The translations under genes were made by a program, and so were the position numbers. A DNA stretch of 64,000 nt from Candidatus Saccharibacteria bacterium HGW-Saccharibacteria-1 (GTDB lineage: Bacteria; Patescibacteriota; Saccharimonadia; Saccharimonadales; Saccharimonadaceae), in contig PGXZ01000001.1 of NCBI GenBank assembly GCA_002839415.1, positions 57,259 to 121,258 on the forward strand, given 5' to 3'. The notes beneath the pieces are model-generated. The model worked only from the letters and a program-made list of their open reading frames with translations, ran no database searches and had not been told where the DNA came from. Below are positions 26,450-32,262 of the stretch, in pieces. The stretch's first letter is position 1, and the number at the start of each line of letters is the position of its first letter.

Positions 26450-27352
26450 ATGAAATTTATTTATAAAATTATTTTTTGTGCAGGTTTGCTATTTGTTATG
26501 AGTGTAATTAATTGTAATTCAGATATTGTTCATGCTCAATCAAGTACAAAAGCTCAAAAAGGCTTGACTGTTTCGCCAATAAGAAGCGAGCTTGAAATTG
26601 CGCCTGGCGTATCTATGGATGGTGTGCTTACAGTCACCAATTCAACAAAAGAGACTATGGTTGTAGATTTAACTGCTGAATCATTTAGCGTTATCAATCA
26701 GCAGTATGATTATGCATTCACCTCAGAGTCCGAAATGACAAAGTGGGTATCTTTTAGCGACAGTAAGATTGAACTTGCCGCAGGCGAGAGTAAAAAGGCT
26801 AATTATACAATCGGCGTTCCACTGTCAGCCGAACCTGGCGGGCGTTACATTAGTCTTTTTGCGAGTACTAATATGCATGTAGATAGTGATAGCTCGATAG
26901 TTTCGCGTCAAAGAGTTGCGTCTCTCCTTTATCTTACCGTAACGGGCAAGATTACTAGATCGGGCAATCTTATTTACTTAACGTCGCCAAATATCGTTAC
27001 AGAAAAGGTAGATTGGAGTATGGTGTTACAAAACACGGGTACGACCCACTTTAGGAGTCGTTATGATGTGAAGATATTGAGTATCATCAATAATGAAGTT
27101 GTTGCCACTAGTCAGGGTGACGCCTTGATTTTGCCAGGCTCACTTCGCCTGATCACTGATGGGTTGCCGTCGCTAAAACTACCAGGTCTGTATAAAGTGG
27201 TTTATACAATTGGTCTTGGTGACACTCCGGCTCGTGTCGAGACTCGTTATCTTTTTTATTCTTCACCGCTAGTGCTAATTTTTGTGATACTTATAATATT
27301 GGCTTCAATCTATACTGCCTATCGTTTAAAATGTCGTAAAGCTAAAAACTAG
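26450..27352 (+). CDS. DUF916/DUF3324-like two-Ig-domain surface protein with a C-terminal TM anchor
   Basis: Sec signal, then LTVSPIRSELEIAPG..., IGVPLSAEPGGRYISLF, then a TM and a basic tail. Paralogue at 31219-32262. Confidence 0.55.
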   Translation: MKFIYKIIFCAGLLFVMSVINCNSDIVHAQSSTKAQKGLTVSPIRSELEIAPGVSMDGVLTVTNSTKETMVVDLTAESFSVINQQYDYAFTSESEMTKWVSFSDSKIELAAGESKKANYTIGVPLSAEPGGRYISLFASTNMHVDSDSSIVSRQRVASLLYLTVTGKITRSGNLIYLTSPNIVTEKVDWSMVLQNTGTTHFRSRYDVKILSIINNEVVATSQGDALILPGSLRLITDGLPSLKLPGLYKVVYTIGLGDTPARVETRYLFYSSPLVLIFVILIILASIYTAYRLKCRKAKN

Positions 27353-27909
27353 TTTGTTTGTGGAACTGCCGTATAAACCACGTATGCAACGTAGTTGCCA
27401 GCTGGTTTTGCCATATCTAGTTTGACGCCATAAGTTACGTTTGTAGTCTCACCACTTGAGACTGGAGTAGTGGTTGACCTAATCAAGTTGTCAGGTGTTA
27501 ACGCTTCGGCGGCGCTAATACCTACGAAATTATTTGAGCCGTTAGTATTATATCCCCAGGTATTTACAGCTAGTGGTGCTGGGTTAGTATTTGCCGAGGC
27601 GGGTAATTGCGCTCCTAGATTGTCCATGTAATTATTGTTCAACGCGCGGATGTAAAGCTTGTATCCTTTTACGTCTGTAGACCATACAGTAACATCACTT
27701 GTGCCCGTCGACAGGGTGCCGCTAGTTGTTGGTGTAATCGAAATACTTACATTGTTATTGGTTGAAATTGACAGCGAGGTCGCATTTCCGTAAGGAATAT
27801 TTTCATTGTATATGCCTTTGCCATAAGGTTGGGCATAGCACGATTGGACAGTTAGAACCGTGGATAAAGTAGATAAAATTAGTAAGAAATTTACTATGGT
27901 TTTTTTCAT
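27349..27909 (-). CDS. secreted beta-rich protein, WxL-like single domain
   Basis: Sec signal ...QSCYA|QP, with GYKLYI and the terminal AGNYVAYVVYTAV at the positions of the two WxL motifs. Confidence 0.5.
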   Translation of the reverse strand: MKKTIVNFLLILSTLSTVLTVQSCYAQPYGKGIYNENIPYGNATSLSISTNNNVSISITPTTSGTLSTGTSDVTVWSTDVKGYKLYIRALNNNYMDNLGAQLPASANTNPAPLAVNTWGYNTNGSNNFVGISAAEALTPDNLIRSTTTPVSSGETTNVTYGVKLDMAKPAGNYVAYVVYTAVPQTN

Positions 27910-27981
27910 GCTTATGTTATTATATCATGTATATAAAGCTTAAAGTAATAACATTAAATGCAAAGTAGGGAATTAAACAAA

Positions 27982-30135: not shown

Positions 30136-31212
30136 ATGACAACAGCACATAATAGAATTACGAAACTTAAGGCTGCTAAAATAATACTATTTGCAGCTGT
30201 GGTCGGTGCATTCCCATTACTAAACATTACAAAAGCAGACGCAGCGCAGCTAGGTAGCCGTTCAGTTACTTTGTCAAGCTCGGTTGGTGACGCAACGGGT
30301 GTATCTTACACCTTGGCGACATCGGCGCTTCCAACTGCGACGGCTGTTAAATCTGTTGAAATTAAATTTTGTACATCTCTTACTGGCGCGTGTGTAATGC
30401 CAGCTGGTTTTTCAGCACTATCATCAACTCTGGATGCTTCGCAACCAACTGGTTTGGGCGCTGCATCCGGTTGGACTGTAAGTGCCGCAACTCAAGGTTC
30501 GCTTAGGATATTAAATGCAGCTAACTCAACTGCGCCATCAGGTTCTGTGTCAATTAGATGGAATGGCGTTCATAACCCAACGGCAAGCGATACTACTTTT
30601 TATGGTGTAATTACAACATATTCAGACAGCGGATGGGTAAGCCCAATTGACGCTGGTTCGGTCGCGCTTAGTACTGCAACCCAAATTCAAGTCGCCTTAA
30701 AAGTTGATGAGACTTTAACGTTCTGTACGGGAACTTCAATAACAGGTCAGGACTGTAGTACGATCAGTGGCAACCAGGTAAACCTTGGCTCTGGTTCTGT
30801 GTCAGCTACCGCTACTGGAACGTCGGTTATCGCAGCCTCAACTAATGGCAATACCGGTTATTCCGTTTCTGTCTCTGGTAATACTTTGACATCTGGTGGT
30901 AACACGATTACGGCGCTTCAATCAGGTGGGGCTTCCGCCAAGGGTTCTAAGCAGTTTGGTTTTAACTTAGCTGACGCAAACACTACGCCAGCCGTTGGTT
31001 CGGCAAAGAGTGGTGCAGGAACGGCAACTGCAGCAGTGAATTATGGCATCAACAATACATTTAGATTTAAAACCGACGAAGTTGTCGCATCTGCTAGCGG
31101 TCCAACCAATGGCAATACATTTACGGTTGGCTATATTGCTAACATTGACGGTATTACACCAGTTGGAGCTTATACTTCAAGCTTAACATATACGGCAACT
31201 TCAAACTTCTAA
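30136..31212 (+). CDS. secreted two-domain surface protein, tandem paralogue 3
   Basis: Same architecture: FCTSLTGACVMPAGFSAL and ends GAYTSSLTYTATSNF. GAGGGG RBS. Confidence 0.65.
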   Translation: MTTAHNRITKLKAAKIILFAAVVGAFPLLNITKADAAQLGSRSVTLSSSVGDATGVSYTLATSALPTATAVKSVEIKFCTSLTGACVMPAGFSALSSTLDASQPTGLGAASGWTVSAATQGSLRILNAANSTAPSGSVSIRWNGVHNPTASDTTFYGVITTYSDSGWVSPIDAGSVALSTATQIQVALKVDETLTFCTGTSITGQDCSTISGNQVNLGSGSVSATATGTSVIAASTNGNTGYSVSVSGNTLTSGGNTITALQSGGASAKGSKQFGFNLADANTTPAVGSAKSGAGTATAAVNYGINNTFRFKTDEVVASASGPTNGNTFTVGYIANIDGITPVGAYTSSLTYTATSNF

Positions 31213-31218
31213 TCTATT

Positions 31219-32262
31219 ATGATGAATATTAAAAAAACAATCAGTTTATCTATAATAGCGCTGATATTGTGTGTCGTGTTTGGGGCTTCGTCCGCTAGCG
31301 CCGAATCAACAAGCACAAATGCTGCTCAGGGTATGCAGATCAGCCCGACTTTAGTAGATTTAAATGCTTCTCGTGGTAAAACATACGAAATCAAATTAAA
31401 CGTTGTTAATATTACCAGTTCAAATCTTGTCTATACTCCATCGGTAGATGATTTTACGGCCGCAAACGAGACTGGTGCACCAAAAATTACTACGGATAGT
31501 AATTTACCAACATCTGCTTCGATTAAAACCTGGGTTACAACCGTATCTAAATTAAACCTTAAATCCCAGCAGCAAAGTACAATAAAGGCACAGATTACTA
31601 TTCCTGATAATGCTGAGCCTGGCGGACATTATGGAGTATTGCGATTTTCGGGTGCCGCACCAGAGCTAGAAACTACTGGAGTTGGTTTGTCGGCTAGTGC
31701 CGGTGTATTGATACTGATTCGTGTTGATGGCGCTATTACCGAAAAGGCTGACGTTGCGTCATTTTATACTGCAACCAAAAATACAAAGGCTGATCCTGAA
31801 ATATCAGAAAATAGCTTTAACCAAACTTCTTTCTTTGAAGAATCACCAGTCTTGTTTGTAACTAGGATTAAAAATGATGGCAATATTCATATCAAACCTT
31901 TTGGTAATATTGAAGTTCGTGATATGTTTGGTGGAATAGTTAAAACTTTGAAAGTGAACGAAAGCAAATCGAATGTGCTACCAAAAAGTACACGTTTGTT
32001 TGAAGCGGAGATTAACAAAGATTGGATGTTTGGAAAATATACAGCAAATCTTTCGGTTGGTTATGGCACGACTGGACAAGCTTTAACTAATACGATTACT
32101 TTTTGGGTAATTCCGTACAAATTGATTTTTGTGGCTTTGATTATAATAACGACACTTATCTATATCTTCTCAATTATGCTAAAATCATATAATAAACGAA
32201 TAATCCAAAAGTCAAAAAATGAAGAATCCAAAAGTAAAAAACGTAGTAACAAAAAAGGTTAA
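31219..32262 (+). CDS. DUF916/DUF3324-like two-Ig-domain surface protein with a C-terminal TM anchor and a Lys-rich tail
   Basis: MQISPTLVDLNASRG..., ITIPDNAEPGGHYGVLRF, TM IFVALIIITTLIYIF. Confidence 0.55.
   Translation: MMNIKKTISLSIIALILCVVFGASSASAESTSTNAAQGMQISPTLVDLNASRGKTYEIKLNVVNITSSNLVYTPSVDDFTAANETGAPKITTDSNLPTSASIKTWVTTVSKLNLKSQQQSTIKAQITIPDNAEPGGHYGVLRFSGAAPELETTGVGLSASAGVLILIRVDGAITEKADVASFYTATKNTKADPEISENSFNQTSFFEESPVLFVTRIKNDGNIHIKPFGNIEVRDMFGGIVKTLKVNESKSNVLPKSTRLFEAEINKDWMFGKYTANLSVGYGTTGQALTNTITFWVIPYKLIFVALIIITTLIYIFSIMLKSYNKRIIQKSKNEESKSKKRSNKKG

Follow-up and report, generated by a model that had tools for sequence, protein, structure and literature searches.

The stretch analyzed here, called the window throughout, comprises 64,000 nucleotides (nt) of Candidatus Saccharibacteria bacterium HGW-Saccharibacteria-1 (contig PGXZ01000001.1, positions 57,259 to 121,258 of the forward strand). 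According to its list of open reading frames (ORFs), seven genes form a compact cassette at 26450-33409, which very probably is a pam operon of Saccharimonadia (candidate phyla radiation [CPR]/Patescibacteria), i.e., the locus of an usher-less pilus built by donor-strand exchange. The pilus system itself has already been described, and the locus is a further, somewhat different pam operon. Two genes on the plus strand, specifying a PamC-like protein of 300 amino acids (aa) (26450-27352) and a PamD-like protein of 347 aa (31219-32262), both membrane-anchored and chaperone-like, bracket four genes for secreted proteins. The latter are a putative single-domain minor subunit of 186 aa, encoded on the minus strand (27349-27909), and three two-domain pilins encoded on the plus strand, namely, pilin 1 (346 aa, 27958-28998), pilin 2 (345 aa, 29085-30122), and pilin 3 (358 aa, 30136-31212), the last with an extra Cys pair right after the linker strand described below. 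The seventh gene (32219-33409, plus strand) encodes a PamR-like (RbmA-like) membrane-anchored protein of 396 aa. An initial annotation of this DNA had set the limits of the unit at 26450-32262, which left the PamR-like gene out; the ORFs, signal peptides, C-terminal membrane helices, and motifs all lie where it had placed them.

Independent gene calls on four public metagenome contigs with an identical protein return the same genes. The cassette order (chaperone, small subunit on the minus strand, three to five pilins, chaperone, PamR-like) is kept in two further Saccharibacteria genomes, L073 and L074, where the chaperone is 58% identical and the gene of the 186-aa protein has the same position and strand; the genes flanking the cassette are different in L074. 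Searches of the protein collection returned 593, 422, and 695 homologues at E ≤ 1e-3 for three families, and every homologue with a named organism comes from Candidatus Saccharibacteria or Saccharimonadales metagenome-assembled genomes. Given hundreds of homologues per family and a gene order kept in two other genomes, the features of the cassette are not due to chance. The PamD-like and PamR-like genes overlap by 44 nt in the window (32219-32262) and by 41 to 47 nt across the three genomes (9971-10011 in L073 and 9962-10008 in L074). This conserved overlap suggests translational coupling or, otherwise, a shorter PamR-like protein with a later true start; the match to the PamR model begins at residue 45. 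The genes around the cassette form a context typical of small chromosomes, and a promoter/terminator scan was uninformative, with counts no higher than in shuffled controls.

The Pam pilus was described in Ca. Mycosynbacter amalyticus, whose thin filaments were solved by cryo-electron microscopy (cryo-EM) (Troman et al. 2026, bioRxiv 10.64898/2026.03.03.709456). According to this preprint, the filament structures obtained by cryo-EM for PamA and PamB reveal two-domain pilins, in which a beta-sandwich at the N-terminus is joined to a truncated Ig-like C-domain by a linker, the donor strand given to the next subunit. PamC and PamD are two PapD/FimC-like chaperones, each with a transmembrane helix at the C-terminus, and further operon products are the PamE pilin, the single-domain PamT, and the RbmA-like membrane protein PamR. 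The pam genes are confined to CPR bacteria, mainly Saccharimonadia, with a tail-fiber-like gene as a conserved neighbor central to pam neighborhoods and ATP synthase among the other neighbors reported (bioRxiv 10.64898/2026.03.03.709456). Three NCBIfam models stem from that work: NF058581 (CPR_Pam_pilin_C; cutoff, 55 bits), NF058578 (CPR_pilus_PamR; equivalog cutoff, 300 bits), and NF058579 (PamT; equivalog cutoff, 240 bits). The first scores pilins 1, 2, and 3 at 147.3, 144.1, and 141.2 bits, respectively, far over its cutoff, and the second matches the PamR-like protein at E = 5.6e-50 (170 bits; model positions 4-172 of 297). The locus shares with the M. amalyticus system two-domain pilins with a conserved linker strand plus a Pam pilin domain at the C-terminus, two membrane-anchored chaperone-like proteins with two Ig domains each, a PamR-like gene, Sec signals throughout, a tail-fiber-like neighbor, the absence of an usher and a sortase, and a Saccharimonadia host. 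No usher-sized gene occurs among the seven genes of the locus. The initial annotation had proposed a divergent version of the WxL surface complex of Firmicutes and, as a fallback, an uncharacterized secreted fiber or adhesin family with chaperone-like partners. The fallback turned out to be the closer description, save for the word uncharacterized, since the pilins match CPR_Pam_pilin_C and the next gene matches PamR.

The three pilins (345 to 358 aa) are Thr/Ser/Ala-rich paralogues with 49 to 59% identity to each other (59% for pilin 2 and 49% for pilin 3 when compared with pilin 1). In the AlphaFold2 model of pilin 1, which has a predicted local distance difference test score (pLDDT) of 75, beta domains at residues 45-190 and 202-344 are joined by a disordered linker, with pLDDT below 50 for residues 192-200 (ALTFTLASS) of the monomer. 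Across 147 diverse homologues, L194 is conserved in 120 and F196 in 126. A linker that is conserved but unstructured in the monomer is expected of a strand that becomes ordered only in the polymer. By analogy with PamA and PamB, residues 190-200 (IDEALTFTLAS; 28525-28557, plus strand) are therefore our candidate for the donated strand of pilin 1, which would complete the C-domain of a neighboring subunit.

Alignment of the Pam C-domains (147 diverse sequences) revealed that G332 and Y334 are invariant and that 144 of them end in Phe or Tyr. Counted from the C-terminus, the invariant Gly is exactly 14 residues away, e.g., in the pilin C-terminus at 28951-28995. Chaperone-usher pilins follow a rule of a conserved Gly at position -14 and an aromatic C-terminal residue, which these C-termini recall. 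The relatives were drawn from a search of 1.84 billion representatives, and 90 diverse ones were scanned with Pfam. Of 981 representative clusters, 150 were listed, and in all of these the Pam C-domain stands at the C-terminus; one relative matches PF00419 (Fimbrial) at E = 0.0025. Some relatives are proteins of 650 to 900 aa that end in a Pam pilin C-domain (P0379, P0385, P0389, P0392, P0404, P0406, P0423, P0447, P0456, and P0469), and SBBP beta-propeller repeats, DUF7948, or TIG were identified in some of the 90 representatives scanned. These domains presumably sit in the N-terminal parts of the 650- to 900-aa proteins, which are likely adhesin-bearing subunits, like two-domain tip adhesins or "large WxL" proteins.

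All four enclosed proteins carry a GY(S/K)(V/L) motif and a terminal (L/V)(T/V)YTA(T/V), as the initial annotation had recorded in viewing their C-domains as WxL domains with Tyr in place of the signature Trp. The motifs are present in the four window proteins, but the first Tyr is not strictly conserved across the family, being Tyr in 106 of the 147 diverse C-domain sequences. Firmicute WxL clusters encode a WxLIP protein (DUF916 [PF06030] plus DUF3324 and a transmembrane helix) together with small and large WxL proteins (PMC10599100, PMC9772566). A CPR counterpart of this WxL/Csc complex, with WxL-type domains bearing Tyr for Trp held noncovalently on peptidoglycan by a WxLIP-like protein as an adhesion platform and not as a pilus, is an improbable explanation of the locus. 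It draws on a supported kinship of the bracketing proteins with WxLIP, detailed below, and on a likeness in subunit design: both the Pam and WxL systems have small single-domain and large multidomain proteins (up to 900 aa for the Pam C-domain), with the common domain at the C-terminus. Moreover, the best hhalign paths of three separate profile pairs place LTFTL on LSID, G-Y-S-V on G-W-x-L, and Y-x-T-x-L-T-Y on Y-x-A-x-L-x-W, so that the terminal YTA falls on the second W-x-L motif. Against it, the W-x-L motif is missing from the four enclosed proteins and from the diverse relatives, and the WxL family PF13731 has no match at E ≤ 1 among the window proteins or at E ≤ 0.1 among the 90 diverse proteins with a Pam C-domain. 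Hidden Markov models (HMMs) built from 85 Firmicute WxL domains gave only E > 0.2 in the window ORFs and left the pilins unmatched. Profile comparison of the Pam C-domain with Firmicute WxL yielded P of 0.005 to 0.07 in hhalign, which is noise level, with unrelated control pairs reaching 0.014; the positive control, small versus large WxL, scored 99.4%. Widening the Pam profile with 144 diverse representatives (effective number of sequences, 3.8) shifted P from 0.011 to 0.0053, and we did not count this score as evidence because of the control pairs. The Pam C-domain HMM also ranked WxL ORFs high, with seemingly strong significance; since a control HMM of the Pam N-domain did so equally, this enrichment was discarded as compositional. 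Proteins homologous to these pilins form filaments in cryo-EM, whereas WxL proteins are described as peptidoglycan-bound platforms. The equation of pilin C-domains with WxL domains, which the initial annotation had put forward, is thus a lead rather than a demonstrated finding, and the locus is better explained as a pam operon.

The best, though weak, matches of the Pam C-domain HMM in Firmicute loci (E of 0.003 to 0.02) are ORFs of L003, L022, L038, L048, L049, and L053, which by position look like WxLIP and not WxL genes (L003 4584-5669 being the one checked against the WxLIP list). They may reflect generic beta-strand or composition similarity.

Structural comparison of the whole pilin model with Foldseek returned generic tandem-Ig matches only, with no WxL chain in the top 50 hits. 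Since these matches include PrgB, SpaP, SpaD, and EbpB (E of 1e-5 to 1e-3), the pilins could be taken for Ig-fold adhesins, either monomeric or of the sortase type (MSCRAMM or SpaD-like), in which case the bracketing proteins would be unrelated membrane proteins. We regard this as very unlikely. The TM-scores of the matches are low (0.2 to 0.3), as for generic tandem beta-sandwiches, and scans of all window ORFs found neither an LPXTG-like C-terminus nor the TLxTC sortase signature, in agreement with the initial annotation; both are hallmarks of sortase-assembled pili. The specific NCBIfam Pam matches and the conserved pairing with two chaperone-like genes also argue against it.

The bracketing proteins are paralogous (BLASTP, 24% identity over 276 aa, E = 2e-11). 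Hydrophobic stretches occur at both ends of each protein, a signal segment at the N-terminus and, at the C-terminus, a helix with a basic tail behind it. This confirms the layout of the initial annotation, which had assigned them a Sec signal, two Ig-like halves, an (S/N)AEPGG(R/H)Y motif, and a transmembrane segment with a basic tail. In the AlphaFold2 model of the PamD-like protein (pLDDT 81), a signal helix precedes two beta-sandwich domains, and residues 300-341 form a C-terminal helix; the transmembrane helix maps to 32089-32193 on the plus strand (Kyte-Doolittle peak, 2.78), with a Lys-rich tail after it. According to the model and a motif search, NAEPGGHY (residue 131; 31609-31632, plus strand) marks the start of an F/G-like beta-hairpin with strands at 135-146 and 158-169, which is the candidate for the complementing strand. 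In the PamC-like protein, SAEPGGRY (residue 126; 26825-26848, plus strand) aligns with this motif and opens the long beta-hairpin of the N-domain. The protein encoded at 26450-27352 is the shorter of the pair, which would fit a PamC without the extra hairpin of PamD.

The top structural matches of the PamD-like model in the PDB are chains of Enterococcus faecium WxLIP (9i1y_A/B and 9i25_C; Foldseek E of 2.6e-10 to 7.7e-10), whose identity as EfmWxLIP1 was confirmed with a Firmicute WxLIP sequence. Entry 9i25, "WxLIP bound to long WxL", was released in January 2026. The alignments span 265 to 286 columns and cover most of the 251- to 267-residue WxLIP chains. WxLIP outranks the chaperones of chaperone-usher systems, which follow with CfaA, CsuC, YadV, DraB, Caf1M, and FimC at E of 3e-8 to 4e-7, each aligned along most of its length. 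The comparison with PapD-like chaperones proposed in the initial annotation thus has a split outcome, with the chaperone folds matched structurally and PapD_N unmatched by sequence. RbmA was rejected as a best match for a chaperone-like protein; its Foldseek E value was good, but its TM-scores were 0.22 to 0.34.

Sequence profiles point in the same direction as the WxLIP structures. WxLIP_PGBD (PF06030, formerly DUF916) is the top Pfam family of both proteins, at E = 3e-5 for 31219-32262 and E = 0.017 for 26450-27352, with scores (24.4 and 15.6 bits) under the gathering score of 27.3. It is also the top family in 27 of 40 homologues at E ≤ 0.01 (best, 5.8e-7), some of which carry a precomputed PF06030 annotation; PapD_N was never matched among the 40. 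For comparison, 68 Firmicute WxLIP loci with 1816 ORFs were fetched via the published motif NQIDKxxxYFDLK. The CPR family aligns with 57 full-length Firmicute WxLIPs in hhalign at 92% (E = 6.6e-7) over 207 columns across both domains, NAEPGGHY falling on the WxLIP strand "P..f.GvilGGi.F". Its N-domain alone still reaches 82% (P = 1e-5), whereas the C-domain on its own falls short of significance (P = 0.066). Among the 1816 Firmicute ORFs, a CPR-family HMM picked out 44 WxLIP ORFs at E ≤ 0.1 and no other ORF. The WxLIP motif NQIDKxxxYFDLK is absent from the chaperone-like proteins, in which the aligned segment reads ISPTLVDLNASRGKTY, and DUF3324 has no Pfam match in the window proteins or the 40 homologues. 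Sequence searches of the PDB copy with single proteins and with chaperone, pilin, and 186-aa profiles retrieved nothing relevant, neither the Pam structures nor WxLIP, the latter being too distant for hmmsearch. These data support homology, for the N-domain at least, between the chaperone-like proteins and the WxLIP (DUF916/DUF3324) proteins encoded in Firmicute WxL clusters and indicate a relationship at the superfamily level. The kinship with DUF916/DUF3324 proteins anticipated in the initial annotation accordingly holds, as the WxLIP matches in Foldseek, Pfam, and hhalign bear out; for the DUF3324 half, sequence comparison gave no significant match, whereas the Foldseek alignments cover most of the WxLIP chains and a transmembrane helix is present.

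The 186-aa protein has a signal peptide, a conserved TSLSIST strand, a distant Pam-pilin-C-like domain, and the C-terminal end VVYTAVPQTN. It has no NCBIfam or Pfam match itself, but NF058581 is the top NCBIfam family in 28 of 42 members of its family (best E, 5e-4). In hhalign, the protein aligns with the pilin C-domain at P = 0.0018 over 127 colinear columns with 27% identity. We therefore read it, from sequence, as a diverged single-domain subunit. Since TSLSIST aligns with the linker strand of the pilins, it may still be able to donate a strand.

Several observations weigh against assigning the locus to the Pam system. The PamR match stays under the equivalog cutoff, with about 100 extra residues in the protein, and a PamT equivalog is absent: NF058579 does not match the 186-aa protein at E ≤ 1 and gives the pilins 78 to 97 bits against its cutoff of 240. 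Unlike in M. amalyticus, the pilins are three PamB-sized paralogues with no 55-kDa PamA-sized pilin at the locus, and the single-domain subunit is encoded on the opposite strand and apparently retains an N-terminal strand-like motif. Gene order also differs, and no ATP synthase was found among the neighboring ORFs checked, in contrast to the neighborhood reported in the preprint. No NCBIfam model matches either chaperone-like protein, and PapD_N (PF00345) is unmatched by both at E ≤ 1, so their chaperone role rests on fold and context. Confidence in the C-domain of the pilin model is moderate (pLDDT 57-84), the case for a pilus in this organism comes from sequence and models, and the source describing the Pam system is a preprint.

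A further explanation takes the cluster as part of the adjoining phage-tail-fiber-like module (22338-26446), i.e., as a prophage remnant or a tailocin-like device for host recognition. A tail-fiber-like gene with an Mtd_N domain indeed lies directly upstream here and in L074, and such a gene is central to pam neighborhoods (bioRxiv 10.64898/2026.03.03.709456). This reading is nevertheless most unlikely. No other phage genes flank the cassette, and the surroundings are housekeeping genes, with FtsH, MurJ, LepA, and TatC on one side and Gmk, HrcA, GrpE, and DnaK on the other. In addition, the guanine-cytosine content is flat across the region, and a signal peptide, present in every pam product, is missing from the upstream proteins.

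The family membership, folds, membrane topology, and conserved gene order are observed at the pam locus itself, whereas donor-strand exchange, the order of assembly, and a role in host binding are inferred from cryo-EM work on the homologous system. All seven products would be exported by Sec, and the three two-domain pilins would polymerize head to tail, the conserved linker strand (ETLTFTL) of one filling the groove of the incomplete Ig-like C-domain of its neighbor. The PamC-like and PamD-like proteins, tethered to the cytoplasmic membrane by their C-terminal helix, would cap this groove with a strand of their own until the next pilin's linker strand takes its place. The diverged 186-aa subunit would participate as a minor component, and the PamR-like protein would end the fiber and anchor it in the membrane. 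With no outer membrane to cross, such a pilus would need no usher, and its most likely task is to reach and bind the host cell on which this epibiotic bacterium lives.

This scheme shares with chaperone-usher pili the boomerang chaperone fold of two Ig domains, incomplete Ig-like subunit domains completed by a donated strand, and a conserved Gly 14 residues from an aromatic C-terminus. In contrast to those pili, this system has neither usher nor outer membrane, its chaperones are membrane-anchored instead of soluble, its pilins have two domains, the donor is an internal linker and not an N-terminal extension, and PF00345 finds no counterpart. Donor-strand complementation without an usher also operates in monoderm and archaeal extracellular fibers such as TasA of Bacillus, archaeal bundling pili, and cannulae. 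Those systems, however, are not known to have dedicated genes for two-domain chaperones, and we saw no sequence or structural match to them here.

The WxL/Csc system resembles the locus in other respects. WxLIP has the same layout as the chaperone-like proteins, with a signal peptide, two Ig-like domains set roughly perpendicular to each other, a long hairpin, and a transmembrane helix at the C-terminus; it is their best match in structure and, for the N-domain, a specific one in sequence. In both systems, the partner proteins come in small and large forms with a C-terminal domain in common. In contrast, the partner proteins here lack W-x-L motifs and a PF13731 match, the chaperone-like proteins lack NQIDKxxxYFDLK and a DUF3324 sequence match, the locus has no LPXTG partner, and the phylum is a different one. 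In AlphaFold2 complexes of the WxLIP paper, a hairpin strand of WxLIP pairs in parallel with one strand of WxL, whose beta-sandwich it completes. In the WxL literature, WxLIP is regarded as a linker between wall and host. The parallel strand pairing between WxLIP and WxL is the geometry of donor-strand complementation by the chaperones of chaperone-usher systems. A tentative possibility, which we consider less probable than not, is that an ancient chaperone/donor-strand system of the monoderm type, working without an usher, gave rise to both Pam pili and WxL/Csc as its two branches, with WxLIP as a membrane-anchored assembly chaperone instead of a passive link between peptidoglycan and host and WxL domains as the Trp-bearing counterparts of Pam C-domains. 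The chaperone half of this idea is supported here, and the subunit half rests on the colinear correspondence of motifs and the matching small/large architectures. On this assumption, the WxL proteins of Firmicutes may be held, or even polymerized, by strand complementation.

The kinship between Pam chaperones and WxLIP is the part worth carrying forward, and the Pam preprint is silent on it: the words WxL, DUF916, and DUF3324 are absent from its text, which sets Pam apart from every known filament and does not settle its origin (bioRxiv 10.64898/2026.03.03.709456). In the literature library searched, no paper contained both "WxL" and "Saccharibacteria", and the single one with both "WxL domain" and "chaperone-usher" is a 2012 secretome-prediction study. 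Homology of the two systems, if real, would place Pam pili in an evolutionary context, and the function of the WxL clusters of enterococci, listeriae, and lactobacilli, which are virulence and colonization factors, would become testable as chaperone-assisted assembly by strand complementation. A pam operon in which all three pilins are PamB-sized, the single-domain subunit has diverged, and equivalogs of PamA and PamT are missing also helps define the core parts of the system.

The block directly upstream of the cassette (21814-26446) comprises five genes, none of them with a signal peptide. The gene at 22338-23369 encodes the Mtd_N (major tropism determinant) N-terminus and matches many phage tail-fiber PHROGs. 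A 143-aa protein of the same block (24194-24625) is paralogous to the first 140 residues of a 549-aa protein (37% identity, E = 2e-23), which itself contains repeats of about 41 aa (123 nt). In L074, a CRP-family regulator and a heliorhodopsin gene (996-2445) lie a few genes upstream of the pam cassette. About 14 kb downstream of the cassette in the window are genes for a ComEC-type competence channel (46018-47475) and a 522-aa lamin-tail-domain protein (48318-49886), both possibly related to DNA uptake.

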